NCBI RefSeq assembly: GCF_051903065.1
Contig: NZ_CP178438.1
Strand: one strand, 5' to 3'
DNA from: Escherichia coli
GTDB taxonomy: Bacteria; Pseudomonadota; Gammaproteobacteria; Enterobacterales; Enterobacteriaceae
Length of the DNA: 64,000 nt
A program made the translations under genes and the position numbers. Positions within the stretch are counted from its first letter, which is position 1. Each line of letters begins with the position of its first letter. This document shows positions 12,387 through 63,480 of the stretch, piece by piece. The notes beneath the pieces are model-generated. The model saw only the letters and a program-made list of their open reading frames with translations. It was not told the origin of the DNA and did no database searches.

Positions 12387-12470
12387 GCCGCTTTATTATC
12401 GAGTTCGGTGACCGCCAGGACGGTCACTTCTGAGAAAAGGCATTTACACAGAATCTTAAACAGGTTCACG
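12387..12470 (+). mobile_element. IS256-family terminal fragment (3' end with terminal repeat), opposite orientation to adjacent transposase pseudogene
   Basis: Direct repeat of 622-700; terminal sequence ggcatttacacagaatcttaaacaggttcac mirrors the sequence at 12358-12386. Confidence 0.5.
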
Positions 12471-13108
12471 CAGCACTGGCGTCAGGGCATTGATTGTCGC
12501 TTTCACTGATTTGCTCCGGTTTCCCGTGGTCAGACTGCGCACTTTCTCCTTCAGCCTGTTCACACTCGTCAGGGCTATTTTCAGCTTCAACTGTTTGTGC
12601 CATGTCATACTGTACCCGAGGAACTTCTGCTCCCACGGGCGCGCCACCGCGCTCTTCTTCTCATTCACTTTCTGCTTCAGTTTGTTCTCTACGACGTCCT
12701 GATACCATCCAGCAATGGCCGCCCTGCGGCATGCCTTCCTGCCATTTCTCTCTTTGCCCGTCCCGGACTATTTCCTCTTTCAAGTAGCGGCGTATCAGCC
12801 TCAGCACCCGCCTGTCCTTTATCGTACTGGCCAGACGCGTCATCAGGAGTCTGTGATCCACACGGTCGAAGAACTTCTCCAGATTTATATCCACCACCCA
12901 CCGTTTGCTGCCCCGTATATAATGCTGTGCCTATTGCACTGCCTGCCATACGTTGCGTCCCAGCCGGAAACCGTGCCTAGAGTCTGAGAAGCTTTTGTCC
13001 ACGATGGCGCTTAAATGTTGCGCTATAGCTATAGCCTGCTGGATAGGCCTATCCACCACTGTCGGGATGCCTAAGGTTCTCACGCCGCCATCATGCAGCT
13101 CTGACGGA
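12471..13108 (-). pseudogene. Group II intron-encoded reverse transcriptase/maturase remnant (frameshifted, internally deleted, truncated at both ends by IS insertions)
   Basis: RT motifs GIPTVVDRPIQQA and DINLEKFFDRVDH; C-terminal maturase-like RPWEQKFLGYSMT; split across overlapping ORFs in different frames. Confidence 0.65.
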
Positions 13109-13172
13109 TGAGGTAGCCTGAGTTTAACGGACACTCCTTCCTGAAATAGAATGGCATCAGAAGGAGCTAATA

Positions 13173-13435
13173 ATGAGCAGAAAAACCCAACGTTACTCTA
13201 AAGAGTTCAAAGCCGAAGCTGTCAGAACGGTTCTTGAAAATCAACTTTCGATCAGTGAAGGCGCTTCCCGATTATCTCTTCCTGAAGGCACTTTAGGACA
13301 ATGGGTTACCGCCGCCAGAAAAGGGCTCGGTACTCTTGGTTCCCGCACGGTGGCTGAACTGGAATCTGAAATTCTGCAACTGCGTAAGGCGTTAAATGAA
13401 GCTCGCCTTGAGCGAGATATATTAAAAAAAGCCGT
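13173..13435 (+). pseudogene. IS600-like OrfA, disrupted by IS30 insertion 5 bp downstream of the A7 slippery run
   Basis: MSRKTQRYSKEFKAEAVRTV...ERDILKKA then IS30 left end; continuation [10 protein letters not shown] follows IS30 right end at 14657. Confidence 0.75.
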
Positions 13436-15564
<2,129 letters not shown>

Positions 15565-15573
15565 CCACTTCAT

Positions 15574-15897
15574 GTCGTTGAACTGCATAATACTGGCCCA
15601 AGCACCGCAACCAGTCTTGCTGCGCTTATCGCTTTATGTTCGATATTGCTGGCAAAACCAGTACAGGAACAGATGGTGGTGTTGGGCAGTATGACGCTTG
15701 GTGGAGTAATTAACCCGATACAAGATCTTGCTGCCAGTTTACAGCTCGCCTTCGACAGCGGCGCAAAACGAGTTCTGTTGCCGATGTCCTCGGCTATGGA
15801 TATTCCAACGGTTCCGGCAGAGTTATTTACCAAGTTTCAGGTGAGTTTTTACTCAGACCCGGTTGATGCTGTTTATAAGGCGCTGGGTGTGAATTAA
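15574..15897 (+). pseudogene. Lon-like protease C-terminal domain fragment (possibly BrxL-like), 5'-truncated by IS600-like element
   Basis: In-frame translation from IS boundary: ...NTGPSTATSLAALIAL...MTLGGVINPIQDLAASLQLAFDSGAKRVLLP... parallels Lon DGPSAG...[30 protein letters not shown]; no N-terminal ATPase region present. Confidence 0.5.
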
Positions 15898-15983
15898 TGT
15901 AGTAACTATTTTAATGAACTGGAGAGGACAATGGCTCAAGAACGTTCTGTAATTAAATTCATCAGACCGGTAATGACTCCAAC

Positions 15984-16487
15984 TTATTGATAGTGTTTTA
16001 TGTTCAGATAATGCCCGATGACTTTGTCATGCAGCTCCACCGATTTTGAGAACGACAGCGACTTCCGTCCCAGCCGTGCCAGGTGCTGCCTCAGATTCAG
16101 GTTATGCCGCTCAATTCGCTGCGTATATCGCTTGCTGATTACGTGCAGCTTTCCCTTCAGGCGGGATTCATACAGCGGCCAGCCATCCGTCATCCATATC
16201 ACCACGTCAAAGGGTGACAGCAGGCTCATAAGACGCCCCAGCGTCGCCATAGTGCGTTCACCGAATACGTGCGCAACAACCGTCTTCCGGAGCCTGTCAT
16301 ACGCGTAAAACAGCCAGCGCTGGCGCGATTTAGCCCCGACATAGCCCCACTGTTCGTCCATTTCCGCGCAGACGATGACGTCACTGCCCGGCTGTATGCG
16401 CGAGGTTACCGACTGCGGCCTGAGTTTTTTAAGTGACGTAAAATCGTGTTGAGGCCAACGCCCATAATGCGGGCTGTTGCCCGGCAT
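15984..16487 (-). CDS. insB: IS1 InsB (expressed as InsAB fusion by frameshift)
   Basis: 167-aa ORF overlapping insA in -1 frame. Confidence 0.85.
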
Positions 16488-16681
16488 CCAACGCCATTCA
16501 TGGCCATATCAATGATTTTCTGGTGCGTACCGGGTTGAGAAGCGGTGTAAGTGAACTGCAGTTGCCATGTTTTACGGCAGTGAGAGCAGAGATAGCGCTG
16601 ATGTCCGGCGGTGCTTTTGCCGTTACGCACCACCCCGTCAGTAGCTGAACAGGAGGGACAGCTGATAGAAACAGAAGCCAC
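16406..16681 (-). CDS. insA: IS1 InsA
   Basis: 91 aa [43 protein letters not shown]... Confidence 0.9.
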
Positions 16682-16890
16682 TGGAGCACCTCAAAAACAC
16701 CATCATACACTAAATCAGTAAGTTGGCAGCATCACCGGCTGTTTATGCTACCCGATTCTCAAATCAATTACCGAAAGCTTCTGTTCATCAACTAACTCAT
16801 TACTTTTAATGATGGGGCCCTTTCTGGGGCCCAAGAAATTAACAACGCTAACAAACAACATAAATAACAATAAATTAAATAAAAAATTTC

Positions 16891-16909
16891 ATTCCTGCAG
16901 GGGACACCA
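16891..16909 (+). repeat. Partial copy of argW tRNA-Arg 3' end (att-type direct repeat) marking island boundary
   Basis: attcctgcaggggacacca matches the 3' terminal 19 nt of tRNA-Arg(CCU) argW as recalled; no upstream tRNA body. Confidence 0.65.
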
Positions 16910-17350
16910 GATACCCTTCAAACCAAATCTACCTTCATCCCGTAAACGATGGGTTTGGCAGCACACTTGCCCTATATCTACTCATTTTTACTGCAACAGG
17001 TTGAAATCTCAGCACTGTCAGAAAGCGCTGATGACTAAACAGCCCTGGGCCGGGCGATGTAACCATCACACAGAATCCTGATAGCGAAATATGGCGTGAC
17101 TCGATACTTCACTCCGCAATGCATTCCTTGATGAATTCGCAGGCCCGTGATACACGCGACAGGTCGCTGAATGACGACAATGTCCTGGAAATCAGCGAAC
17201 CGTGTATCCGGAGTACATTTGAGCGACTGTACCAGAACATGAATGAGGTGTTTGGATTAGGCGATTATTAGCAGGGCTAAGCATTTTACTATTATTATTT
17301 TCCGGTTGAGGGATATAGAGCTATCGACAACAACCGGAAAAAGTTTACGT

Positions 17351-18598
17351 CTATATTGCTGAAGGTACAGGCGTTTCCATAACTATTTGCTCGCGTTTTT
17401 TACTCAGGAAGAAAATGCCAAATAGCAACATCAGGCAGACAATACCCGAAATTGCGAAGAAAACTGTCTGGTAGCCTGCGTGGTCAAAGAGTATCCCAGT
17501 CGGCGTTGAAAGCAGCACAATCCCAAGCGAACTGGCAATTTGAAAACCAATCAGAAAGATCGTCGACGACAGGCGCTTATCAAAGTTTGCCACGCTGTAT
17601 TTGAAGACGGATATGACACAAAGTGGAACCTCAATGGCATGTAACAGCTTCACTAATGAAATAATCCAGGGGTTAACGAACAGCGCGCAGGAAAGGATAC
17701 GCAACGCCATAATCACAACACCGATAAGTAATGCATTTTTTGGCCCTACCCGATTCACAAAGAACGGAATAATCGCCATGCACAGCGCTTCGAGTACCAC
17801 CTGGAATGAGTTGAGATAACCATACAGGCGCGTTCCTACATCGTGTGATTCGAATAAACCTGCATAAAAGACGGGAAAAAGTTGTTGATCAAAAATGTTA
17901 TAGAAAGACCACGTCCCAACAATAAATATGACGAAAACCCAGAAGTTTCGATCCTTGAAAACTGCGATAAAATCCTCTTTTTTTACCCCTCCCGCATCCG
18001 CCGCTACGCACTGGTGATCCTTATCTTTAAAACACATGTTGATCATCATAAATACAGCGCCAAATAGCGAGACCAACCAGAAGTTGATATGGGGACTGAT
18101 ACTAAAAAATATGCCGGCAAAGAACGCGCCAATAGCATAGCCAAAAGATCCCCAGGCGCGCGCTGTTCCATATTCGAAATGAAAATTTCGCGCCATTTTT
18201 TCAGTGAAGCTGTCAAGCAAACCGCAGCCCGCCAGATAACCCAGGCCAAAAAAGAGCGCACCCAGAATTAAACCTACAGAAAAATTGCTTTGCAGTAACG
18301 GTTCATAAACGTAAATCATAAACGGTCCGGTCAAGACCAGGATGAAACTCATACACCAGATGAGCGGTTTCTTCAGACCGAGTTTATCCTGAACGATGCC
18401 GTAGAACATCATAAATAGAATACTGGTAAACTGGTTGACCGAATAAAGTGTACCTAATTCCGTCCCTGTCAACCCTAGATGTCCTTTCAGCCAAATAGCG
18501 TATAACGACCACCACAGCGACCAGGAAATAAAAAAGAGAAATGAGTAACTGGATGCAAAACGATAGTACGCATTTCTGAATGGAATATTCAGTGCCAT
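17351..18598 (-). CDS. cscB: Sucrose:H+ symporter CscB (LacY-type MFS)
   Basis: 415 aa, N-terminus MALNIPFRNAYYRFASSYSFLFFISW; arrangement with cscK, cscA, cscR. Confidence 0.9.
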   Translation of the reverse strand: MALNIPFRNAYYRFASSYSFLFFISWSLWWSLYAIWLKGHLGLTGTELGTLYSVNQFTSILFMMFYGIVQDKLGLKKPLIWCMSFILVLTGPFMIYVYEPLLQSNFSVGLILGALFFGLGYLAGCGLLDSFTEKMARNFHFEYGTARAWGSFGYAIGAFFAGIFFSISPHINFWLVSLFGAVFMMINMCFKDKDHQCVAADAGGVKKEDFIAVFKDRNFWVFVIFIVGTWSFYNIFDQQLFPVFYAGLFESHDVGTRLYGYLNSFQVVLEALCMAIIPFFVNRVGPKNALLIGVVIMALRILSCALFVNPWIISLVKLLHAIEVPLCVISVFKYSVANFDKRLSSTIFLIGFQIASSLGIVLLSTPTGILFDHAGYQTVFFAISGIVCLMLLFGIFFLSKKREQIVMETPVPSAI

Positions 18599-18669
18599 AA
18601 TTACCTGCCTGTCGTTAAAAAATTCACGTCCTATTTAGAGATAAGAGCGACTTCGCCGTTTACTTCTCA

Positions 18670-19584
18670 CTATTCCAGTTCTTGTCGACATGGCAGCGCT
18701 GTCATTGCCCCTTTCGCCGTTACTGCAAGCGCTCCGCAACGTTGAGCGAGATCGATAATTCGTCGCATTTCTCTCTCATCTGTAGATAATCCCGTAGAGG
18801 ACAGACCTGTGAGTAACCCGGCAACGAACGCATCTCCCGCCCCCGTGCTATCGACACAATTCACAGACATTCCAGCAAAATGGTGAACTTGTCCTCGATA
18901 ACAGACCACCACCCCTTCTGCACCTTTAGTCACCAACAGCATGGCGATCTCATACTCTTTTGCCAGGGCGCATATATTCCGATCGTTCTGTGTTTTTCCA
19001 CTGATAAGTCGCCATTCTTCTTCCGAGAGCTTGACGACATCCGCCAGTTGTAGCGCCTGCCGCAAACACAAGCGGAGCAAATGCTCGTCTTGCCATAGAT
19101 CTTCACGAATATTGGGATCGAAGCTGACAAAACCTCCGGCATGCCGGATCGCAGTCATCGCAGTAAATGCGCTGGTACGCGAAGGCTCGGCAGACAACGC
19201 AATTGAACAGAGATGTAACCATTCGCCATGTCGCCAGCAGGGCAAGTCTGTCGTCTCTAAAAAAAGATCGGCACTGGGGCGGACCATAAACGTAAATGAA
19301 CGTTCCCCTTGATCGTTCAGATCGACAAGCACCGTGGATGTCCGGTGCCATTCATCTTGCTTCAGATACGTGATATCGACTCCCTCAGTTAGCAGCGTTC
19401 TTTGCATTAACGCACCAAAAGGATCATCACCGACCCGACCTATAAACCCACTTATTCCGCCTAATCTGGCGATTCCCACCGCAACGTTAGCTGGCGCGCC
19501 GCCAGGACAAGGCAGTAGGCGCCCGTCTGATTCTGGCAAGAGATCTACTACCGCATCCCCTAAAACCCATACTTTGGCTGACAT
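18670..19584 (-). CDS. cscK: Fructokinase CscK (PfkB/ribokinase family)
   Basis: 304 aa with PfkB signature ...DSTGAGDAFVAGLL...; between cscB and cscA. Confidence 0.9.
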   Translation of the reverse strand: MSAKVWVLGDAVVDLLPESDGRLLPCPGGAPANVAVGIARLGGISGFIGRVGDDPFGALMQRTLLTEGVDITYLKQDEWHRTSTVLVDLNDQGERSFTFMVRPSADLFLETTDLPCWRHGEWLHLCSIALSAEPSRTSAFTAMTAIRHAGGFVSFDPNIREDLWQDEHLLRLCLRQALQLADVVKLSEEEWRLISGKTQNDRNICALAKEYEIAMLLVTKGAEGVVVCYRGQVHHFAGMSVNCVDSTGAGDAFVAGLLTGLSSTGLSTDEREMRRIIDLAQRCGALAVTAKGAMTALPCRQELE

Positions 19585-19799
19585 TTTTTTCCCTTAAATT
19601 CATCTGACTTACGCATAGTGATAAACCTCTTTTTCGCAAAATCGTCATGGATTTACTAAAACATGCATATTCGATCACAAAATGTCATAGTTAACGTTAA
19701 CATTTGTGATATTCATCGCATTTATGAAAGTAAGGGACTTTATTTTTATAAAAGTTAACGTTAACAATTCACCAAATTTGCTTAACCAGGATGATTAAA

Positions 19800-21233
19800 A
19801 TGACGCAATCTCGATTGCATGCGGCGCAAAACGCACTAGCAAAACTTCATGAGCACCGGGGTAACACTTTCTATCCCCATTTTCACCTCGCGCCTCCTGC
19901 CGGGTGGATGAACGATCCAAACGGCCTGATCTGGTTTAACGATCGTTATCACGCGTTTTATCAACATCACCCAATGAGCGAACACTGGGGGCCAATGCAC
20001 TGGGGACATGCCACCAGCGACGATATGATCCACTGGCAGCATGAGCCTATTGCGCTAGCGCCAGGAGACGATAATGACAAAGACGGGTGTTTTTCAGGTA
20101 GTGCTGTCGATGACAATGGTGTCCTCTCACTTATCTACACCGGACACGTCTGGCTCGATGGTGCAGGTAATGACGATGCAATTCGCGAAGTACAATGTCT
20201 GGCTACCAGTCGGGATGGTATTCATTTCGAGAAACAGGGTGTGATCCTCACTCCACCAGAAGGAATCATGCACTTCCGCGATCCTAAAGTGTGGCGTGAA
20301 GCCGACACATGGTGGATGGTAGTCGGGGCGAAAGACCCAGGCAACACGGGGCAGATCCTGCTTTATCGCGGCAGTTCATTACGTGAATGGACTTTCGATC
20401 GCGTACTGGCCCACGCTGATGCGGGTGAAAGCTATATGTGGGAATGTCCGGACTTTTTCAGCCTTGGCGATCAGCATTATCTGATGTTTTCCCCGCAGGG
20501 AATGAATGCCGAGGGATACAGTTACCGAAATCGCTTTCAAAGTGGCGTAATACCCGGAATGTGGTCGCCAGGACGACTTTTTGCACAATCCGGGCATTTT
20601 ACTGAACTTGATAACGGGCATGACTTTTATGCACCACAAAGCTTTGTAGCGAAGGATGGTCGGCGTATTGTTATCGGCTGGATGGATATGTGGGAATCGC
20701 CAATGCCCTCAAAACGTGAAGGCTGGGCAGGCTGCATGACGCTGGCGCGCGAGCTATCAGAGAGCAATGGCAAACTCCTACAACGCCCGGTACACGAAGC
20801 TGAGTCGTTACGCCAGCAGCATCAATCTATCTCTCCCCGCACAATCAGCAATAAATATGTTTTGCAGGAAAACGCGCAAGCAGTTGAGATTCAGTTGCAG
20901 TGGGCGCTGAAGAACAGTGATGCCGAACATTACGGATTACAGCTCGGCACTGGAATGCGGCTGTATATTGATAACCAATCTGAGCGACTTGTTTTGTGGC
21001 GGTATTACCCACACGAGAATTTAGACGGCTACCGTAGTATTCCCCTCCCGCAGCGTGACACGCTCGCCCTAAGGATATTTATCGATACATCATCCGTGGA
21101 AGTATTTATTAACGACGGGGAAGCGGTGATGAGTAGTCGAATCTATCCGCAGCCAGAAGAACGGGAACTGTCGCTTTATGCCTCCCACGGAGTGGCTGTG
21201 GTGCAACATGGAGCACTCTGGCAACTGGGTTAA
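19800..21233 (+). CDS. cscA: Sucrose-6-phosphate hydrolase / invertase CscA (GH32)
   Basis: GH32 motifs WMNDPNG, FRDP, WECPD; start placed at MTQSRLH (ORF track begins 3 codons earlier at 19791). Confidence 0.9.
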   Translation: MTQSRLHAAQNALAKLHEHRGNTFYPHFHLAPPAGWMNDPNGLIWFNDRYHAFYQHHPMSEHWGPMHWGHATSDDMIHWQHEPIALAPGDDNDKDGCFSGSAVDDNGVLSLIYTGHVWLDGAGNDDAIREVQCLATSRDGIHFEKQGVILTPPEGIMHFRDPKVWREADTWWMVVGAKDPGNTGQILLYRGSSLREWTFDRVLAHADAGESYMWECPDFFSLGDQHYLMFSPQGMNAEGYSYRNRFQSGVIPGMWSPGRLFAQSGHFTELDNGHDFYAPQSFVAKDGRRIVIGWMDMWESPMPSKREGWAGCMTLARELSESNGKLLQRPVHEAESLRQQHQSISPRTISNKYVLQENAQAVEIQLQWALKNSDAEHYGLQLGTGMRLYIDNQSERLVLWRYYPHENLDGYRSIPLPQRDTLALRIFIDTSSVEVFINDGEAVMSSRIYPQPEERELSLYASHGVAVVQHGALWQLG

Positions 21234-21240
21234 CATAATA

Positions 21241-22236
21241 TCAGGTGGAACAACGGATCAACAGCGGGCAAGGGATCCGCGTCACACTTCCCCCTTCACG
21301 ACCTTCAATAATATGCAATGCAGCTTCCCGCCCGATAATGTCATGTGGAAGCTGAATTGTGGTCAGCGGCGGTAAAAACAGATGCCCGACGCCAACCAGA
21401 TTATCAAAGCCCATTACGGCGACATCCTGCGGGATACGTACCCCCTTAGCCAGGAGAACCTGATAAGCCACAAAGGCTGCGCGATCGTTACCACATATCA
21501 GAACATCAAAATCTGGTTTGCCCGATTTGAAGTGGTCATTGAGTAAACTTGCGAGATCGGTGTAGTGATCATCACCTGTTGCCATGTGAAATTGTTTCAC
21601 CTCAGCCAGATCTCGTCCAGCATCACGCCAGGCCTGCTCAAATCCCTGCCGACGATACCCTGTTGCCAACGCACTTTCCGGTAGCCAGAAGCATAACGGT
21701 TGACGATAGCCCGCCGCGAGCAAATGCTGTGTTGATTCATATTGTGCAGTGTAATCATCAGGGATATAACTGGGTAACGCTGGGTCATCCGCCACACAGT
21801 TCGCCAATACAATATTTTCACCATACAGAGACTCAGGTAGCGTGATATGTCGCAGCCCCATTGTAGTATAGATAATGCCATCCGGACGGTGGGCAAGCAG
21901 CTGACGTGCCGCGCGGGCAGCGTCATCTTCAGAAAAAATATTGATTAAAAAACTATTCCAGCCGAACTCGCTGGCGGTTTGCTCAATGGCAAGCAGAATA
22001 TCAACAGAGAAAGGAGTGGTAGCAGTGTCCTGCGCCAGCACGGCGAGAGTCGACGGCTTACGTCCTTGAGCGCGCATCTTACGGGCGGAAAGATCAGGAA
22101 CATAATTCAGGGTCTGGATTGCCTGCAATACGCGGTCACGCGTTGCAGGACGCACAGATTCTGCATTATGCATCACCCGGGAGACTGTCATCATCGACAC
22201 TCCCGCCAGGCGTGCGACATCCTTTAATGAAGCCAT
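21241..22236 (-). CDS. cscR: Sucrose operon repressor CscR (LacI family)
   Basis: HTH MASLKDVARLAGVSMMTVSRV; start placed at internal ATG 22236 (ORF track extends 62 codons upstream). Confidence 0.85.
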   Translation of the reverse strand: MASLKDVARLAGVSMMTVSRVMHNAESVRPATRDRVLQAIQTLNYVPDLSARKMRAQGRKPSTLAVLAQDTATTPFSVDILLAIEQTASEFGWNSFLINIFSEDDAARAARQLLAHRPDGIIYTTMGLRHITLPESLYGENIVLANCVADDPALPSYIPDDYTAQYESTQHLLAAGYRQPLCFWLPESALATGYRRQGFEQAWRDAGRDLAEVKQFHMATGDDHYTDLASLLNDHFKSGKPDFDVLICGNDRAAFVAYQVLLAKGVRIPQDVAVMGFDNLVGVGHLFLPPLTTIQLPHDIIGREAALHIIEGREGGSVTRIPCPLLIRCST

Positions 22237-22466
22237 ACCCAAGCCGTTTGCCGTAAAACGGGCACTGTAGCAGAAACAGACGTCACTGGCGAGATCCAAC
22301 GCCCTATCACCTGACACGGCAATACAATAAAAAATAACAATAATTCCCGGACAATTGTCCCCAATTCCGCCTCTGTTCTCGCCAACGAGTAACCATATAG
22401 GCAAGTAAGTAAAACATGCCAACTGGCATCGCCAACCTGGAGAAGAAAATATAAATATGGATCATT

Positions 22467-22685
22467 GTGCTGCCGCTGTATCCCGACATCAGCCCGGAAA
22501 TTATTGCGATTGCTATCGGTTCAGGCGCGATTGGCTGCACGATCGTTACGGACTCGCTTTTCTGGCTGGTGAAGCAATATTGCGGCGCTACGCTCAATGA
22601 AACATTTAAATACTATACGACAGCGACATTTATCGCTTCAGTCGTCGCTCTGGCGGGCACATTCCTGCTGTCATTTATCATCTAA
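22467..22685 (+). pseudogene. dsdX: dsdX 3' remnant (D-serine permease C-terminal about 70 codons)
   Basis: Hydrophobic C-terminal segment immediately upstream of dsdA with no N-terminal portion; csc cluster occupies the position of dsdC and dsdX 5' part. Confidence 0.7.
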
Positions 22686-22702
22686 GCGCAAAGAGACGTA
22701 CT

Positions 22703-24031
22703 ATGGAAAACGCTAAAATGAACTCGCTCATCGCCCAGTATCCGTTGGTAAAGGATCTGGTTGCTCTTAAAGAAACCACCTGGTTTAATCCTGGCACGAC
22801 CTCATTGGCTGAAGGTTTACCTTATGTTGGCCTGACCGAACAGGATGTTCAGGACGCCCATGCGCGCTTATCCCGTTTTGCACCCTATCTGGCAAAAGCA
22901 TTTCCTGAAACTGCTGCCACTGGGGGGATTATTGAATCAGAACTGGTTGCCATTCCGGCTATGCAAAAACGGCTGGAAAAGGAATATCAACAACCGATCA
23001 GCGGGCAACTGTTACTGAAAAAAGATAGCCATTTGCCCATTTCCGGCTCCATAAAAGCACGCGGCGGGATTTATGAAGTCCTGGCACACGCAGAAAAACT
23101 GGCTCTGGAAGCGGGGTTGCTGACGCTTGATGATGACTACAGCAAACTGCTTTCTCCGGAGTTTAAACAGTTCTTTAGCCAATACAGCATTGCTGTGGGC
23201 TCAACCGGAAATCTGGGGTTATCAATCGGCATTATGAGCGCCCGCATTGGCTTTAAGGTGACAGTGCATATGTCTGCTGATGCCCGGGCATGGAAAAAAG
23301 CGAAACTGCGCAGCCATGGCGTTACGGTCGTGGAATATGAGCAAGATTATGGTGTTGCCGTCGAGGAAGGACATAAAGCAGCGCAGTCTGACCCGAACTG
23401 TTTCTTTATTGATGACGAAAATTCCCGCACGTTGTTCCTTGGGTATTCCGTCGCTGGCCAGCGTCTTAAAGCGCAATTTGCCCAGCAAGGCCGTATCGTC
23501 GATGCTGATAACCCTCTGTTTGTCTATCTGCCGTGTGGTGTTGGCGGTGGTCCTGGTGGCGTCGCATTCGGGCTTAAACTGGCGTTTGGCGATCATGTTC
23601 ACTGCTTTTTTGCCGAACCAACGCACTCCCCTTGTATGTTGTTAGGCGTCCATACAGGATTACACGATCAGATTTCTGTTCAGGATATTGGTATCGACAA
23701 CCTTACCGCAGCGGATGGCCTTGCAGTTGGTCGCGCATCAGGCTTTGTCGGGCGGGCAATGGAGCGTCTGCTGGATGGCTTCTATACCCTTAGCGATCAA
23801 ACCATGTATGACATGCTTGGCTGGCTGGCGCAGGAAGAAGGTATTCGTCTTGAACCTTCGGCACTGGCGGGTATGGCCGGACCTCAGCGCGTGTGTGCAT
23901 CAGTAAGTTACCAACTGATGCACGGTTTCAGCGCAGAACAACTGCGTAATGCCACTCATCTGGTGTGGGCGACGGGAGGTGGAATGGTGCCGGAAGAAGA
24001 GATGAATCAATATCTGGCAAAAGGCCGTTAA
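22703..24031 (+). CDS. dsdA: D-serine dehydratase (deaminase)
   Basis: 442 aa, [19 protein letters not shown]..., PLP-binding Lys region SGSIKARGG. Confidence 0.95.
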
Positions 24032-24138
24032 TAACATTTCAACGCAGCATCGCCATCCTTTCCCTGGGTGAGCGATGCTGCCGATGGCGCAGACTTAAGA
24101 TCCCCGGTCTTACCCGCTATAACCCCCTGCTTTTACCA

Positions 24139-25677
24139 TCACCCAACGCCTTTCGCTGTAAACGGCGGTTTCGCAAACCAAACCAAAACCGTAAGTAAGA
24201 TAAAAGCAATAGCCGCCATACGGAAAATCTCATTTGCAGAAATAGAAAGTGACTGCTGGGTTATTTCATTATTAATTTCATTAAGAACTCCTGAAAGCGA
24301 ACCATAGTATTTATCCATAATTTGTGACGATGAATTAAACACAGGGTTAAATTGATCGATGGTTGCTGTCAACTGACTATGGTGTAACGATTCGCGTCGC
24401 CCCCACAGCGTCATTGTCAACGACGTACCAACTGATCCTGACAAGGTACGAAAAAAATTACTCATACTCGAGGCATTGGCAAATTTATTATCTGGCAACC
24501 CTGAAAACGAAATCGTTGTTAAGGGTAAAAAGAAACAGGCAACGGCGAACCCCTGGAAAAACTGTGGCAAAATGATGCCTGTAAAATCAATCGTTGGCAT
24601 AAATGTCACAGAACGCCAGTAATAGCAAACCGCATACATCAAAAAACTAAATGTCACTAACAACCGCATGTCTATTTTGTTGCCATAACGTCCTATCAAA
24701 GGTGAAATTAATAGTGGCATGATGCCGATGGGCGCATAAGCAAGTCCGGCCCATATCGCATTATACCCCATCGTTTCCTGGAGTAACTGCGGCATAAGGA
24801 CGATCGCTCCAGAGTAAAATAAATACGCGCATGTGATACTCACTATACCAATGGTGAAATTACGGGACTTAAACAAACTGAGATCAAGAATCGGGTTCTC
24901 TGAGGTCGACTCCCAAATGACTAAAGAGATCAGAGAAATAACTGATACTACTGTTAATATTATTATTGTACTCGAGTTGAACCAATCCAGATCGCGCCCT
25001 TTATCAAGCATAATTTGCAAGCCACCAACACCGAGCACTAACAGGGTCAGTCCTGGTAGATTCATTTTGACCGGTGAAGTCTCAGTTTCTCTTCCTTTAA
25101 GTAAGGTTAAGCATAATGTCAGGACGATAATACCCATAGGGACATTGATTAAAAATATCCAACCCCAGCTAAAGTTATCGCAAATATATCCGCCTAATAT
25201 CGGCCCACATATCGGAGCTATAATCACGGTCATTGACCATAATGCCAGAGCAAATGTTCTTTTTTCTGGTGGATAATTCCTTAATAATAAACTCTGTGAC
25301 AGTGGAATTAACGGCCCTGCCATTAACCCCTGAACGACTCTAAAAAATATCAACACATCAAGATTGGTCGATAAACTACACATTAAGGAAGACAGCGAAA
25401 AAAAAGTGACTGAAAGTAAAAATAACCTTAATTCGCCTATTCTTTGTGCCAGCCTGCCGGTAACAGGGATCGCAATGGCATTTGCTACGCCAAACGAGGT
25501 GATAACCCAGGTGCCTTCGTCTGTTGATGCTCCCAGAAAGCCAGATATTGTCGGTATTGCGACGTTAGAAATAGTGGAATCCAACATTTGCATAAACGTC
25601 GCTAATGACAATGCAATAGTGACGCACCATAACGTCCCACCGGTTAATGGTGCTGGAGTTGATTTAGTGATTGCCAT
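24139..25677 (-). CDS. emrY: Multidrug efflux MFS transporter EmrY
   Basis: 512 aa, 14-TMS MFS profile; synteny emrK-emrY next to evgAS. Confidence 0.9.
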   Translation of the reverse strand: MAITKSTPAPLTGGTLWCVTIALSLATFMQMLDSTISNVAIPTISGFLGASTDEGTWVITSFGVANAIAIPVTGRLAQRIGELRLFLLSVTFFSLSSLMCSLSTNLDVLIFFRVVQGLMAGPLIPLSQSLLLRNYPPEKRTFALALWSMTVIIAPICGPILGGYICDNFSWGWIFLINVPMGIIVLTLCLTLLKGRETETSPVKMNLPGLTLLVLGVGGLQIMLDKGRDLDWFNSSTIIILTVVSVISLISLVIWESTSENPILDLSLFKSRNFTIGIVSITCAYLFYSGAIVLMPQLLQETMGYNAIWAGLAYAPIGIMPLLISPLIGRYGNKIDMRLLVTFSFLMYAVCYYWRSVTFMPTIDFTGIILPQFFQGFAVACFFLPLTTISFSGLPDNKFANASSMSNFFRTLSGSVGTSLTMTLWGRRESLHHSQLTATIDQFNPVFNSSSQIMDKYYGSLSGVLNEINNEITQQSLSISANEIFRMAAIAFILLTVLVWFAKPPFTAKGVG

Positions 25678-26840
25678 TAAAGTTGTCCATTATGCGAAAT
25701 AATGTTGCTAATTTCTTTTTCTATCGGACTGGTATCGATAACTAAAGCCTTACTGGTATAAGCAGGCATGGAGGTCACGGTTGAAGCCAGATCAGGCATC
25801 TCAGCAATGTCTTCGTCCTTCGTATCAATAGTTGCAGTCATCGATAAACCAATGCGCAAGGGGTGTTCCATGAGTTCTTTTGGATCAAGAGAAACTTCAA
25901 CCGGTACACGCTGAACGATTTTGATCCAGTTCCCTGTCGCATTTTGTGCAGGTAATAAGGAGAACGCATTGCCGGTTCCCATATTGATCCCTGTCACCCG
26001 GCCATGAAACACAACATTTTCACCATAAAGATCGCTGATAATATTGACCGATTGACCAATCCGTACATCCGTGAGTTGTGTTTCTTTAAAGTTGGCATTA
26101 ACCCACATTTGACGTGCCGGTACGACAGCCATTAACGATTGTCCGGGGCTCACTGTTTCGCCGACCTGAACACTTCTCTGGGCAATATAGCCGGTAACCG
26201 GACTCTTAATATCCGTACGTTTAAGCGCCAACCAGGCTTCTTTGGTTGCATCCGCAGCTTCAACGACTTGTGGCTGACGGTTTAATGGTGTGTTCATTAC
26301 TAAAGCTTTATTCGCTTTATAAGCCTGGATAGCGGCATTCAATGCCGCTTTGCTACTTATTAACGTATCTTTGGTATGCTCCAGCGTTTCTTTTGAAATA
26401 ACCCCCTGCTTCGCTAAAGGCACACGACGGTTATAATCTTCTAAAGATTGTTGATACTGAATACGTGCTGAAGCGACTTCGGCACTGTATTGTTTATCCT
26501 GTAAGTACAGTTTATTCGTTTGCCGAACAATATTTGCCAGATTATTTTTAGCTTTATTGAGTGCGATAGTGGCATCAGTTTTATCCAGTGAAACTAAAAT
26601 GTCACCCTGTCGAACGTAGTTCGTATCTTTATGATTAACTACAGTGACACTACCTGAGACTTGTGCAGAAATTGGATCTGCATTCCCCGTGACATAGGCG
26701 TCATCTGTACTAATCATGTCTTCTAATTCCATTGACCAATAGGCATAAGCACCTGAAAACGCAATAAATAAAACTATCGCCAATAAAGAAAAGTATTTTC
26801 TTCTGTTAGAATGTTTTTTATTTGAATTAATCTGTTCCAC
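25677..26840 (-). CDS. emrK: Multidrug efflux membrane fusion protein EmrK
   Basis: 387 aa HlyD-family; overlaps emrY start. Confidence 0.9.
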   Translation of the reverse strand: MEQINSNKKHSNRRKYFSLLAIVLFIAFSGAYAYWSMELEDMISTDDAYVTGNADPISAQVSGSVTVVNHKDTNYVRQGDILVSLDKTDATIALNKAKNNLANIVRQTNKLYLQDKQYSAEVASARIQYQQSLEDYNRRVPLAKQGVISKETLEHTKDTLISSKAALNAAIQAYKANKALVMNTPLNRQPQVVEAADATKEAWLALKRTDIKSPVTGYIAQRSVQVGETVSPGQSLMAVVPARQMWVNANFKETQLTDVRIGQSVNIISDLYGENVVFHGRVTGINMGTGNAFSLLPAQNATGNWIKIVQRVPVEVSLDPKELMEHPLRIGLSMTATIDTKDEDIAEMPDLASTVTSMPAYTSKALVIDTSPIEKEISNIISHNGQL

Positions 26841-27013
26841 TATTATCTCTCATTTCGCATAGATGAAATTTATGAATTGAATGAAAAGAGTATTCATTCT
26901 TCATATCAAACACAGTGCATGTGTTGCACATTATCCCAGGAACGTTGGAGGCCTAATTTAAATGAGGTGCAAAAAAAACAACAGAGGACTAAACCGTGGC
27001 TTTTGCAATACAA

Positions 27014-27031
27014 TTCTTACGCCTGTAGGAT
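27014..27031. promoter_or_regulatory. Candidate EvgA box in emrK-evgA intergenic region
   Basis: ttcttacgcctgtaggat, imperfect 18-bp inverted repeat resembling the recalled TTCYTACA half-site consensus. Confidence 0.4.
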
Positions 27032-27255
27032 TAGTGAGAAGACTTATAGTGCTAACTTGAAACTATAAATCATCGGTATAATCCCTGATTTTATTGTTGA
27101 CATTTCATATATGCCGACTATTTATATGGTATACTTGTCGAATTATCTTAAAGGAAGCTCAAATTTTCTTATTTTTATTGAGAAAATGAGATGATGCCTT
27201 ATGTCTGTATTACTACAGGGAGAAGGGAGATGCTTCATTGCAAAGGGAATAATCT

Positions 27256-27870
27256 ATGAACGCAATAATTATTGATGACCATCCTCTTGCTATCGCAGCA
27301 ATTCGTAATTTATTGATCAAAAACGATATTGAAATCTTAGCAGAGTTGACTGAAGGCGGAAGTGCCGTTCAGCGGGTGGAAACACTTAAGCCTGATATCG
27401 TCATCATTGATGTCGATATCCCCGGAGTTAACGGTATCCAGGTGTTAGAAACGCTGAGGAAGCGCCAATATAGCGGAATTATTATTATCGTCTCCGCTAA
27501 AAATGACCATTTTTACGGGAAACATTGTGCTGATGCTGGCGCTAATGGTTTCGTGAGTAAAAAAGAAGGCATGAACAATATCATTGCGGCTATTGAAGCT
27601 GCAAAAAATGGCTACTGCTATTTCCCCTTCTCTCTCAACCGGTTTGTTGGAAGTTTAACGTCCGACCAGCAAAAACTCGACTCCTTATCGAAACAAGAAA
27701 TTAGTGTCATGCGCTATATTCTTGATGGCAAGGATAATAATGACATTGCTGAAAAAATGTTCATCAGCAACAAAACTGTCAGCACTTATAAAAGTCGCCT
27801 GATGGAAAAATTAGAATGTAAATCACTGATGGATCTTTACACATTCGCACAACGTAACAAAATCGGCTAA
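27256..27870 (+). CDS. evgA: Response regulator EvgA (NarL/FixJ family)
   Basis: 204 aa, MNAIIIDDHPLAIAAIRNLL... Confidence 0.95.
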   Translation: MNAIIIDDHPLAIAAIRNLLIKNDIEILAELTEGGSAVQRVETLKPDIVIIDVDIPGVNGIQVLETLRKRQYSGIIIIVSAKNDHFYGKHCADAGANGFVSKKEGMNNIIAAIEAAKNGYCYFPFSLNRFVGSLTSDQQKLDSLSKQEISVMRYILDGKDNNDIAEKMFISNKTVSTYKSRLMEKLECKSLMDLYTFAQRNKIG

Positions 27871-27874
27871 CCAC

Positions 27875-30800
27875 ATGAAGTTTTTACCCTATATTTTTCT
27901 TCTCTGTTGTGGTCTTTGGTCGACCATAAGTTTCGCAGACGAAGATTACATCGAATATCGTGGCATCAGTAGTAACAACCGTGTCACACTTGATCCACTA
28001 CGTCTGAGCAACAAGGAATTACGTTGGTTAGCGAGCAAAAAAAATCTTGTGATTGCAGTACATAAGTCCCAAACGGCTACGTTGTTGCATACCGATTCGC
28101 AGCAACGGGTTCGTGGTATTAATGCTGATTATTTAAATCTTTTAAAAAGAGCGTTAAATATCAAATTAACACTCCGGGAATACGCCGATCATCAAAAAGC
28201 AATGGACGCGCTGGAAGAAGGTGAAGTCGATATAGTGTTATCACATTTAGTTGCTTCGCCGCCTCTTAATGATGACATTGCTGCAACCAAACCACTGATA
28301 ATTACCTTTCCGGCGCTGGTCACCACCCTTCACGATTCAATGCGACCGCTTACCTCATCAAAACCAGTAAATATTGCTCGAGTAGCAAATTATCCCCCTG
28401 ACGAGGTAATTCATCAATCATTTCCAAAAGCAACAATTATCTCTTTTACAAATTTATATCAGGCATTAGCATCCGTCTCAGCCGGACAGAATGATTACTT
28501 TATTGGTAGTAACATCATTACCAGCAGTATGATTTCCCGCTATTTCACTCACTCCTTAAATGTAGTGAAATATTATAACTCACCGCGTCAATATAATTTT
28601 TTCTTGACCAGAAAAGAATCTGTCGTTCTTAATGAAGTACTCAATCGATTTGTTGATGCTTTGACAAATGAAGTTCGCTATGAAGTATCACAAAATTGGC
28701 TTGATACAGGAAACCTGGCCTTTCTGAACAAACCATTAGAACTCACTGAACATGAAAAACAGTGGATTAAGCAGCATCCCGATTTAAAGGTGCTGGAAAA
28801 TCCTTACTCGCCCCCCTATTCTATGACGGATGAAAATGGCTCGGTTCGGGGCGTTATGGGGGACATTCTTAATATTATTACCTTGCAAACAGGTTTAAAT
28901 TTTTCTCCGATCACCGTTTCACACAATATCCATGCTGGAACACAGCTGAATCCCGGCGGATGGGATATATTACCCGGTGCTATTTATAGTGAAGATAGAG
29001 AAAATAATGTTTTATTTGCTGAAGCCTTCATAACAACGCCTTACGTTTTTGTCATGCAAAAAGCGCCTGACAGTGAACAAACATTAAAAAAAGGAATGAA
29101 AGTTGCCATTCCATATTATTATGAGCTTCATTCGCAATTAAAAGAGATGTATCCGGAGGTAGAGTGGATAAAAGTCGATAACGCCAGCGCTGCATTTCAC
29201 AAGGTCAAGGAAGGCGAACTTGATGCTCTGGTCGCGACACAGTTAAATTCACGTTACATGATCGACCATTACTATCCTAATGAACTTTATCATTTTCTTA
29301 TTCCCGGCGTTCCGAATGCATCGCTTTCGTTCGCTTTTCCTCGCGGAGAACCGGAACTTAAGGATATTATTAATAAAGCACTGAATGCAATCCCCCCAAG
29401 CGAAGTTCTGCGCCTGACCGAAAAATGGATTAAAATGCCCAATGTGACCATTGACACATGGGACCTCTATAGCGAGCAATTTTATATTGTTACGACATTA
29501 TCCGTTTTATTAGTTGGCAGTAGCCTTTTATGGGGATTCTACCTGTTACGCTCAGTTCGTCGTCGTAAAGTCATTCAGGGTGATTTAGAAAACCAAATAT
29601 CATTCCGGAAAGCACTCTCGGATTCCTTACCGAATCCAACTTATGTTGTAAACTGGCAAGGTAATGTCATTAGTCATAATAGTGCTTTTGAACATTATTT
29701 CACTGCGGATTACTACAAAAATGCAATGTTACCATTAGAAAACAGTGACTCCCCCTTTAAAGATGTTTTTTCTAATGCGCATGAAGTCACAGCAGAAACG
29801 AAAGAAAATCGAACAATATACACACAGGTATTTGAAATTGATAATGGCATCGAGAAAAGATGCATTAATCACTGGCATACATTATGCAATCTGCCAGCCA
29901 GCGATCATGCTGTTTATATTTGTGGTTGGCAAGATATTACCGAGACGCGTGATTTAATTCATGCACTCGAAGTAGAGAGAAATAAAGCGATCAATGCAAC
30001 TGTCGCAAAAAGCCAGTTTCTGGCAACAATGAGTCACGAAATAAGAACACCAATTAGCTCCATTATGGGCTTCCTGGAACTTCTGTCGGGTTCTGGTCTT
30101 AGCAAGGAGCAACGTGTGGAGGCGATTTCACTTGCCTACGCCACCGGACAATCACTCCTCGGCTTAATTGGTGAAATCCTTGATGTCGACAAAATTGAAT
30201 CGGGTAACTATCAACTTCAACCACAATGGGTCGATATCCCTACTTTAGTCCAGAACACTTGTCACTCTTTCGGTGCGATTGCTGCAAGCAAATCGATCGC
30301 ATTAAGTTGCAGCAGTACGTTTCCTGAACATTACCTGGTTAAGATCGACCCTCAGGCGTTTAAGCAGGTCTTATCTAATTTACTGAGCAATGCTCTCAAA
30401 TTTACCACCGAGGGGGCAGTAAAAATTACGACCTCCCTGGTTCACATTGATGACAACCACGCTGTAATCAAAATGACGATTATGGATTCTGGAAGTGGAT
30501 TATCACAGGAAGAACAACAACAACTGTTTAAACGTTATAGCCAAACAAGTGCAGGTCGTCAGCAAACAGGTTCTGGTTTAGGCTTAATGATCTGCAAAGA
30601 ATTAATTAAAAACATGCAGGGTGATTTGTCATTAGAAAGTCATCCAGGCATAGGAACAACATTTACGATCACAATCCCGGTAGAAATTACCCAACAAGTG
30701 GCGGCTGTCGAGGCAAAAGCAGAACAACCTATCACACTACCTGAAAAGTTGAGCATATTAATCGCGGATGATCATCCGACCAACAGGCTATTACTCAAAC

Positions 30801-31468
30801 GCCAGCTAAATCTATTAGGATATGATGTTGACGAAGCCACTGATGGTGTGCAAGCGCTACACAAAGTCAGTATGCAACATTATGATCTGCTTATTACTGA
30901 CGTTAATATGCCGAATATGGATGGTTTTGAGTTGACTCGCAAACTCCGTGAGCAAAATTCGTCCTTACCCATCTGGGGGCTTACAGCCAACGCACAGGCT
31001 AACGAACGTGAAAAAGGGTTAAATTGCGGCATGAACTTATGTTTGTTCAAACCGTTGACCCTGGATGTACTGAAAACACATTTAAGTCAGTTACACCAGG
31101 TTGTGCATATTGCACCTCAGTATCGCCACCTTGATATCGAAGCCCTGAAAAATAATACGGCGAACGATCTACAACTGATGCAGGAGATTCTCATGACTTT
31201 CCAGCATGAAACGCATAAAGATCTACCCGCTGCGTTTCATGCACTAGAAGCTGGCGATAACAGAACTTTCCATCAATGTATTCATCGCATCCACGGTGCG
31301 GCTAACATCCTGAATTTGCAAAAGTTGATTAATATTAGCCATCAGTTAGAAATAACACCTGTTTCAGATGACAGTAAACCTGAAATTCTTCAGTTGTTGA
31401 ACTCTGTAAAAGAACACATTGCAGAGCTGGACCAGGAGATTGCTGTTTTCTGTCAACAAAATGACTAA
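27875..31468 (+). CDS. evgS: Hybrid sensor histidine kinase EvgS
   Basis: 1197 aa with periplasmic solute-binding domains, HisKA (SHEIRTP), receiver and HPt domains. Confidence 0.95.
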   Translation: MKFLPYIFLLCCGLWSTISFADEDYIEYRGISSNNRVTLDPLRLSNKELRWLASKKNLVIAVHKSQTATLLHTDSQQRVRGINADYLNLLKRALNIKLTLREYADHQKAMDALEEGEVDIVLSHLVASPPLNDDIAATKPLIITFPALVTTLHDSMRPLTSSKPVNIARVANYPPDEVIHQSFPKATIISFTNLYQALASVSAGQNDYFIGSNIITSSMISRYFTHSLNVVKYYNSPRQYNFFLTRKESVVLNEVLNRFVDALTNEVRYEVSQNWLDTGNLAFLNKPLELTEHEKQWIKQHPDLKVLENPYSPPYSMTDENGSVRGVMGDILNIITLQTGLNFSPITVSHNIHAGTQLNPGGWDILPGAIYSEDRENNVLFAEAFITTPYVFVMQKAPDSEQTLKKGMKVAIPYYYELHSQLKEMYPEVEWIKVDNASAAFHKVKEGELDALVATQLNSRYMIDHYYPNELYHFLIPGVPNASLSFAFPRGEPELKDIINKALNAIPPSEVLRLTEKWIKMPNVTIDTWDLYSEQFYIVTTLSVLLVGSSLLWGFYLLRSVRRRKVIQGDLENQISFRKALSDSLPNPTYVVNWQGNVISHNSAFEHYFTADYYKNAMLPLENSDSPFKDVFSNAHEVTAETKENRTIYTQVFEIDNGIEKRCINHWHTLCNLPASDHAVYICGWQDITETRDLIHALEVERNKAINATVAKSQFLATMSHEIRTPISSIMGFLELLSGSGLSKEQRVEAISLAYATGQSLLGLIGEILDVDKIESGNYQLQPQWVDIPTLVQNTCHSFGAIAASKSIALSCSSTFPEHYLVKIDPQAFKQVLSNLLSNALKFTTEGAVKITTSLVHIDDNHAVIKMTIMDSGSGLSQEEQQQLFKRYSQTSAGRQQTGSGLGLMICKELIKNMQGDLSLESHPGIGTTFTITIPVEITQQVAAVEAKAEQPITLPEKLSILIADDHPTNRLLLKRQLNLLGYDVDEATDGVQALHKVSMQHYDLLITDVNMPNMDGFELTRKLREQNSSLPIWGLTANAQANEREKGLNCGMNLCLFKPLTLDVLKTHLSQLHQVVHIAPQYRHLDIEALKNNTANDLQLMQEILMTFQHETHKDLPAAFHALEAGDNRTFHQCIHRIHGAANILNLQKLINISHQLEITPVSDDSKPEILQLLNSVKEHIAELDQEIAVFCQQND

Positions 31469-60192: not shown

Positions 60193-60268
<76 letters not shown>

Positions 60269-60307
60269 ACGATGCGTTTACGTACCAAATTTGCTGGGTG
60301 CAAAATT

Positions 60308-60383
<76 letters not shown>

Positions 60384-63082: not shown

Positions 63083-63158
63083 GGGTGATTAGCTCAGCTG
63101 GGAGAGCACCTCCCTTACAAGGAGGGGGTCGGCGGTTCGATCCCGTCATCACCCACCA
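63083..63158 (+). tRNA. valU: tRNA-Val (UAC)
   Basis: GGGTGATTAGCTCAGCTGGGAGAGCACCTCCCTTACAAGGAGGGGGTCGGCGGTTCGATCCCGTCATCACCCACCA. Confidence 0.95.
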
Positions 63159-63202
63159 ACTACTTTATGTAGTCTCCGCCGTGTAGCAAGAAATTGAGAA
63201 GT

Positions 63203-63278
63203 GGGTGATTAGCTCAGCTGGGAGAGCACCTCCCTTACAAGGAGGGGGTCGGCGGTTCGATCCCGTCATCACCCACCA
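63203..63278 (+). tRNA. valX: tRNA-Val (UAC)
   Basis: Identical copy. Confidence 0.95.
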
Positions 63279-63324
63279 CTTTCTCACCAGCTAAATTTCT
63301 TGTAACAATGTGAAGTACCGAAGT

Positions 63325-63400
63325 GGGTGATTAGCTCAGCTGGGAGAGCACCTCCCTTACAAGGAGGGGGTCGGCGGTTCGATCCCGTCATCACCCACCA
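63325..63400 (+). tRNA. valY: tRNA-Val (UAC)
   Basis: Identical copy. Confidence 0.95.
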
Positions 63401-63404
63401 CTTC

Positions 63405-63480
63405 GGGTCGTTAGCTCAGTTGGTAGAGCAGTTGACTTTTAATCAATTGGTCGCAGGTTCGAATCCTGCACGACCCACCA
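63405..63480 (+). tRNA. lysV: tRNA-Lys (UUU)
   Basis: GGGTCGTTAGCTCAGTTGGTAGAGCAGTTGACTTTTAATCAATTGGTCGCAGGTTCGAATCCTGCACGACCCACCA. Confidence 0.95.

Follow-up and report, generated by a model that had tools for sequence, protein, structure and literature searches.

The locus analyzed here lies within a 64,000-nucleotide stretch of Escherichia coli DNA (assembly GCF_051903065.1, contig NZ_CP178438.1; the whole stretch is hereafter called the window) and carries the sucrose utilization (csc) genes cscB, cscK, cscA and cscR between a repeat of the 3′ end of the tRNA gene argW and an intact dsdA. We consider it very probable indeed that the locus represents the standard csc haplotype found between argW and dsdA in E. 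coli, in which the csc genes stand in for dsdC and most of dsdX. The anatomy of the locus, its breakpoints, the missing dsdC and the frequency of the arrangement among complete genomes are direct observations of the present analysis. The arrangement and the sucrose/D-serine trade-off as such are already known, and the window adds no new mechanism to them; the additions made here are the count of the exact breakpoint among complete genomes, a lower bound for the genomes carrying both haplotypes, and a case of a csc-positive strain whose dsdA is identical to that of K-12.

A csc segment in place of dsdC and most of dsdX

The replacement was delimited by a blastn search of the whole window against the argW-evgS region of K-12 MG1655, which returned a single alignment (window 22468-29501, from nucleotide 1121 of dsdX onward, 98.45% identity) and sets the right junction at 22467/22468, within codon 374 of dsdX, with the K-12 flank (the dsdX tail, dsdA, emrYK and evgAS) continuing to its right. 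On the other side, similarity to K-12 stops directly after the CACCA of the argW repeat, and between these two points 5,558 bp (16910-22467) stand in place of 2,368 bp of K-12, the latter being made up of dsdC, codons 1-373 of dsdX and the dsdC-dsdX control region. An earlier note, made from the letters of the window alone, had proposed as much, i.e., a csc cluster substituting for dsdC and most of dsdX (the matching position in K-12 holding dsdC and a full-length dsdX), a junction near 22440-22470, a dsdX tail of roughly 70 codons at 22467-22685 and an intact, orphaned dsdA. The blastn breakpoints and the profile scans agree with it on all of this, the tail having 72 codons and being indeed derived from dsdX. 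Genes were called by combining a listing of open reading frames (ORFs) with NCBIfam profile scans, and the csc names are those that RefSeq gives in a genome 100% identical over 16700-24100 (Table 1).

Table 1. Features of the argW-dsdA locus in the window (aa, amino acids; MFS, major facilitator superfamily).
Feature	Position	Strand	Evidence and remarks
argW 3′-end repeat TTCCTGCAGGGGACACCA, 18-nt direct repeat	16892..16909	+	Sole match in the window; 0.01 expected by chance
csc-haplotype spacer, 441 bp	16910..17350	+	Without counterpart in K-12
cscB, sucrose:H+ symporter, MFS oligosaccharide family, 415 aa	17351..18598	-	TIGR00882, 593.6 bits (cut-off 220)
cscK, fructokinase, 304 aa	18670..19584	-	NF006957 equivalog, 505.6 bits (cut-off 450); RefSeq cscK
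Divergent cscK/cscA control region	19585..19799		12-bp palindrome GTTAACGTTAAC, present twice
cscA, sucrose hydrolase (GH32 invertase), 477 aa	19800..21233	+	TIGR01322, 479 bits (cut-off 356)
cscR, LacI-family repressor of the csc genes, 331 aa	21241..22236	-	LacI-family models only, all below their own cut-offs
cscR upstream spacer, 231 bp, right end of the csc segment	22237..22467		No K-12 homology
dsdX remnant, 3′-terminal 218 nt of the gene (codons 374-445 and stop)	22468..22685	+	blastn to K-12; DsdX model
dsdA, D-serine ammonia-lyase, intact, 442 aa	22703..24031	+	TIGR02035, 809.6 bits

The right junction reads ...GGATCATTG/TGCTGCCG and is identical, in an alignment, in five csc-positive strains, the sharers of the exact junction including the O55:H7 strain DEC5D and isolates from urine, sewage and chicken. 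No microhomology was seen at this junction beyond the breakpoint itself (...GCACCCA/TG in K-12 vs. ...GGATCATTG/TG in the window). The ORF at 22467-22685 fits positions 374-445 of the 445 of the DsdX model (E = 1.6e-42), and its translation equals that of K-12 DsdX except for Met374, the codon being GTG here instead of ATG; it ends 17 bp upstream of dsdA and is labelled by RefSeq as a pseudogene fragment or a partial GntT/GntP/DsdX-family permease.

As a side observation, the GTG at the junction opens the 72-codon ORF in the frame of dsdX, and the variants of the tail among seven strains are all synonymous in that frame. A translated micro-protein was considered as a candidate and set aside for insufficient support, there being at most four differing sites per sequence pair and recombination acting as a confounder; a ribosome-binding site for this GTG was rejected as well, the nearest GGAG lying some 26 nt upstream, which was judged too far.

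Two species-wide haplotypes

The spread of the arrangement was surveyed by megablast among 5,426 complete E. coli genomes, two of which are 100% identical to the window over 16700-24100. A query of 300 bp with the junction at its centre was covered to at least 80% in 2,684 of these genomes, those without the junction matching it only from query position 151, that is, from window 22468, and the reciprocal K-12 query finds a continuous, K-12-type dsdX in 2,755. As 5,376 genomes match at all, at least 63 must carry both junction types. The csc and the dsdCXA arrangements are two roughly equal haplotypes of the species, and, because the breakpoint is identical in about half of the complete genomes, one ancient event is indicated, after which the csc replacement would have spread both vertically and by homologous recombination. 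The trade-off that the earlier note ascribed to some pathogenic lineages is published indeed, yet it is not confined to them, as both the count given above and the non-pathogenic E. coli W make plain.

Loss of dsdC and most of dsdX, and the predicted state of dsdA

Of the parts that make up a functional dsdCXA locus, the window retains an intact dsdA, whereas dsdC, a full-length dsdX and the dsdC-dsdX control region (reportedly the site of the DsdC-dependent dsdXA promoter; Norregaard-Madsen 1995) are all missing. The dsdA product is 99.3% identical to that of K-12, with the three substitutions R224H, Q405L and T417A and no internal stops. A tblastn search with K-12 DsdC (E ≤ 1e-3) found no homologue of it in the 64 kb of the window. 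For the genome at large, window 16717-24100 was joined to the coding strand of K-12 dsdC as one megablast query, the dsdC part being put in a non-native orientation so as to keep a neighbouring dsdC from merging into the same place, and the chromosomes of the two closest genomes (23CRST027 and 23CRST031) gave one matching place each, i.e., no dsdC and no second dsdA at the sensitivity of megablast. Over the 43 kb compared, the first of these shares 99.99% identity with the window. Its evgS is split by an insertion sequence (IS) of the IS5 family, whereas evgS of the window is intact (27875-31468, 1,197 codons); because of this, the window represents a near relative of 23CRST027 and not that very assembly.

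The searches thus bear out the earlier note as regards the missing dsdC. Its proposal that a dsdC homologue elsewhere would restore induction, on the other hand, makes for an incomplete test, as the control region has itself been replaced: because this region lies within the lost 2,368 bp, a stray dsdC would probably not suffice to restore induction of the window's dsdA, and a full second dsdCXA would be needed. Such a second complete copy, which would let the strain use D-serine normally, as in the K1 strains RS218 and CE10, has its precedents: two dsdCXA copies are documented in neonatal meningitis-associated E. coli (PMC4366372, PMC7486766), the csc junction and a continuous dsdX occur together in the genomes with both junction types counted above, and a second matching place was seen in 2 of the 40 top csc-positive genomes (H30 and H33). 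Double carriers, however, amount to about 1-2% of genomes, the window itself has neither dsdC nor a second dsdA, and the joined query of csc, dsdA and dsdC found a single place on either of the two closest chromosomes; a second copy in this strain is, in our estimate, extremely improbable.

What the window does keep upstream of dsdA is the place of a weak internal promoter, a dsdA promoter element (dsdAp) having been placed by PMC7486766 at 115 bp upstream of where dsdA starts, a position that falls within the dsdX remnant of the window. A sigma-70 consensus scan of 19500-24200 gave no promoter-like site and so located none of cscAp, cscRp and dsdAp. Because the activator gene, the transporter and the control region are lost and only the weak-promoter region is kept, dsdA is expected to be essentially silent, and the strain would both fail to grow on D-serine and be inhibited by it. 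This phenotype, the silence of dsdA included, is predicted by analogy with published strains that have the same junction: enterohaemorrhagic E. coli (EHEC) TUV93-0 does not grow on D-serine, is inhibited by it and has a silent dsdA, which was reactivated only when deletions brought the promoter of cscA or of z3622 near (PMC7486766).

A different view of dsdA would have the orphan gene usefully expressed, either from its internal promoter or by transcripts that start at the sucrose-induced cscA promoter and read through the antisense cscR, which would allow a low-level or sucrose-linked detoxification of D-serine and account for the survival of an intact gene. Read-through in particular accords with the absence of any intrinsic-terminator pattern from the plus strand all the way from the cscA stop (21233) to dsdA, with the lack of a stable hairpin at the cscA/cscR boundary (z = +1.08), and with findings in EHEC, where deletion of the intervening 1.1 kb makes dsdA transcription follow cscAp and where deletion of cscR alone leads to D-serine tolerance (PMC7486766). 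In the same study, however, the reporter signal of the wild-type EHEC fragment that spans cscAp to dsdA did not exceed background and wild-type EHEC was sensitive to D-serine, and the 1.47 kb of untranslated antisense RNA, along with convergent transcription of cscR, would make Rho-dependent termination likely. We therefore regard useful expression of the orphan gene as unlikely, and still more so its strict form, namely a dsdA rewired to sucrose, in which relief from CscR would send transcription from the cscA promoter through the antisense cscR and the dsdX remnant into dsdA; were this highly doubtful scenario true, D-serine deaminase would be made on sucrose and not on D-serine, which could help explain the intact dsdA of csc lineages.

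The conservation of dsdA speaks for its usefulness at first sight, since the gene is intact in the window and in five of the six csc-positive strains examined, with ratios of nonsynonymous to synonymous polymorphism (pN/pS) of 0.06-0.23 that resemble those of cscA and come from small counts. This conservation is confounded, however: dsdA of the csc-positive strain WCHEC035148 is nucleotide-identical to that of the dsdCXA-positive K-12, which, judged from the sequences, indicates homologous recombination across the haplotype boundary, so that recombination can refresh the gene. The dsdA of O55:H7 DEC5D, with its two internal stop codons (codons 27 and 377), speaks against a maintained orphan gene and shows that orphan dsdA does decay in some lineages. 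Purifying selection on orphan dsdA was accordingly rejected as evidence of function, the counts being few and recombination with dsdCXA strains confounding them, and the conservation may reflect such recombination and not selection acting on orphan dsdA.

The csc genes and growth on sucrose

All four csc genes are complete ORFs, and together with the two putative operators and the location between argW and a truncated dsdX followed by dsdA they make up the full csc regulon. RefSeq names the cscB product in the 100% identical genome WP_001197016.1, the same protein being found in O55:H7 DEC5D, and the cscR product, likewise identical in DEC5D, "sucrose operon repressor CscR" (WP_001301925.1); a 393-aa ORF from a TTG at 22422 is a mechanical extension of cscR. 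The family that cscA matches, TIGR01322, is that of sucrose-6-phosphate hydrolase, and the cscA start in the table is that of RefSeq, the mechanical ORF beginning 9 nt earlier, at 19791. The palindrome GTTAACGTTAAC occurs at 19690-19701 and 19754-19765 (two exact matches vs. 0.00 expected), and the two copies are putative CscR operators that fit the description in PMC11251922, the relevant part of which, citing Jahreis 2002, places the operators as two 12-bp inverted repeats between cscK and cscA.

Compared with DEC5D, WCHEC035148 and E28, the 231-bp spacer upstream of cscR lacks 12 bp (ACGAWATTCTCR, flanked by ACG repeats) at 22298/22299, some 62 bp ahead of the start of cscR; the deletion is also present in JS01 and may affect the cscR promoter.

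As established for the csc regulon, CscB would bring in sucrose together with a proton, CscA would cleave it into glucose and fructose, CscK would phosphorylate the fructose, and CscR would block the divergent cscKB and cscA promoters through the two GTTAACGTTAAC operators until sucrose is present. Growth on sucrose is likely to be slow, if published isolates with csc and without scr are a guide: 23 of 29 of these grew slowly or very slowly, 5 of 29 did not grow, and none grew fast (PMC11251922). Because of the five failures, intact csc genes do not guarantee growth on sucrose. The earlier note had predicted a sucrose-positive strain unable to induce D-serine deaminase normally; the D-serine half of this fits the strains with the same junction (EHEC TUV93-0 and E. 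coli W), whereas "sucrose-positive" overstates a cluster that, by itself, usually supports slow growth.

Several points do weigh against the csc-haplotype reading as a whole. The absence of dsdC outside the window was taken from relatives, at megablast sensitivity and from their chromosomes only, and these closest complete genomes differ from the window in two small indels and in having the IS5 in evgS; the genomes with both junction types (at least 63) attest to the existence of second dsd copies; the 12-bp deletion of the window sits about 60 bp upstream of cscR; and four of the five isolates that failed to grow on sucrose had no visible csc defect (PMC11251922). The latter two are also what could be held to favour a csc cluster that is cryptic in this strain, with no growth on sucrose and hence no trade-off, just a loss of D-serine use. 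Against such a cryptic cluster stand the full length of the four csc genes and the intact operators, the CscB and CscR proteins shared with DEC5D, the csc-dependent growth on sucrose of the related EHEC TUV93-0, which was abolished by deletion of csc (PMC7486766), and the fact that the 12-bp deletion, being common to JS01, is not unique to the window. We hold a cryptic cluster to be rather unlikely, albeit the least unlikely of the alternatives weighed here, and retain the csc haplotype, with sucrose genes that are probably functional, as the best explanation.

The left boundary and the argW island

The 18 nt of TTCCTGCAGGGGACACCA have the same letters as the 3′ end of K-12 argW, and the 15-nt pawZ repeat is contained within them. 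The repeat is both the right attachment site of an argW island of about 23 kb and the left edge of the csc segment: the closest genome has argW and a truncated tyrosine recombinase (integrase) gene about 23 kb upstream, just left of the start of the window, so that the island shows the tRNA 3′-end direct repeat at its distal end and the integrase beside the tRNA gene that are looked for in a tRNA island. In the csc-positive, island-free strains WCHEC035148 and 20KM2762, an intact argW is continuous with the same 441 bp, which are then followed by cscB, and because argW runs into it in these strains, the 441-bp spacer is part of the csc haplotype. It is conserved at 98% in four strains and holds, at 17089-17271, a 60-codon fragment of a DUF4942 gene (Pfam, E = 3.8e-9, profile positions 8-62 of 190). 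The island would thus have entered argW later, in the lineage of the window, displacing the original argW 3′ end to 16892-16909.

Positions 1-16909 of the window are the right part of this island, which is strongly decayed by ISs and contains copies or fragments of IS30, IS911, IS66, IS903B and IS1, a 3.5-kb autotransporter gene and a gene for a FadR/GntR-family regulator. An IS1 copy (about 15969-16736) lies within a YeeU-family antitoxin gene, the final ~73 bp of which are left at 16737-16809 with no cognate CbtA-type toxin gene after them; strain JS01 has an uninterrupted YeeU-family antitoxin gene at the equivalent site. Further to the left, an IS911/IS3-family element, whose orfB remnant is found at 14725-15564, is interrupted by a copy of IS30 (transposase at 13498-14649). 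Far to the right of the locus, the window holds two tRNA clusters, one at 60193-60383 on the minus strand (two tRNA-Ala(GGC)) and one at 63083-63480 on the plus strand (three tRNA-Val(UAC) and one tRNA-Lys(UUU)).

Relation to known csc and dsd loci

The closest counterparts are EHEC O157:H7 (EDL933/TUV93-0) and its O55:H7 relatives, which have the gene order, orientation and dsdX breakpoint of the window (as checked in DEC5D). DEC5D also has the 441-bp DUF4942 spacer after its argW repeat, and differs in the island upstream of that repeat, which holds a recombinase gene (z3622) where the window has the IS1 in the YeeU-family antitoxin gene, in its dsdA, interrupted by stops there and intact here, and in the cscR spacer, where the window, 12 bp shorter, reads CCGGACAA and DEC5D reads CCGGATAA. 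With z3622 taken as the recombinase gene at 648-1274 of the DEC5D stretch, the geometry of the published EHEC deletion LCV10B (5,637 bp, starting 32 bp short of the 3′ end of z3622 and ending 122 bp past the 5′ end of cscR; PMC7486766) fits the DEC5D locus, on which CCGGATAA is the right end of the deletion. The LCV2 deletion measures 1,120 bp in PMC7486766 vs. about 1,160 bp when counted along DEC5D, a discrepancy that may reflect a different annotation of the cscR start.

The csc regulon of E. coli W (ATCC 9637) and EC3132 has the same gene set as the window, and in E. coli W, compared by description, csc likewise lies between a variable argW region and dsdX, with D-serine use lost (PMC3032704); its argW carries the remnant of a lambda-like prophage in place of the IS-ridden island of the window. 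The K-12 order is argW-CPS-53-pawZ-dsdC-dsdX-dsdA, with the argW repeat on the left as in the window, and with 2,368 bp of dsd DNA and no csc genes where the window has its 5,558 bp of csc DNA. The Cf_csc cluster of Citrobacter freundii encodes homologous proteins and has conserved cscA promoter and operator elements, but its cscA and cscR are each inverted, and it is too diverged for blastn with an E. coli csc query (PMC11251922).

Implications for the sucrose/D-serine trade-off

Earlier accounts of the subject, as cited in later papers, are those of Alaeddinoglu and Charles (1979), Jahreis (2002) and Moritz and Welch (2006). The arrangement and the trade-off have since been published in Archer 2011, Connolly 2015, O'Boyle 2020 and Stephens 2024. 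That cscRAKB has taken the place of dsdC and part of dsdX at the argW hotspot has been described for EDL933 (PMC4366372, PMC7486766), as has the same replacement with loss of D-serine use for E. coli W (PMC3032704), and population-wide discussions of it hold D-serine use and csc-type sucrose use to be mutually exclusive (PMC11251922, PMC13054288). Among commensal isolates, csc was found in about 35-37%, being near universal in phylogroups B1, D and E but missing from phylogroups A and F (PMC11251922).

Seen in this light, csc and dsd form a textbook metabolic trade-off fixed at a recombination hotspot, one that parts the catabolisers of D-serine, a compound abundant in urine and brain, from the sucrose users inhibited by it, such as EHEC, most B1, D and E strains and E. 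coli W, and this alternative has been connected with niche restriction and with repression of the LEE (locus of enterocyte effacement) type III secretion system. For the strain behind the window, the result is its assignment to the csc haplotype, with slow use of sucrose and sensitivity to D-serine as the predicted consequences.

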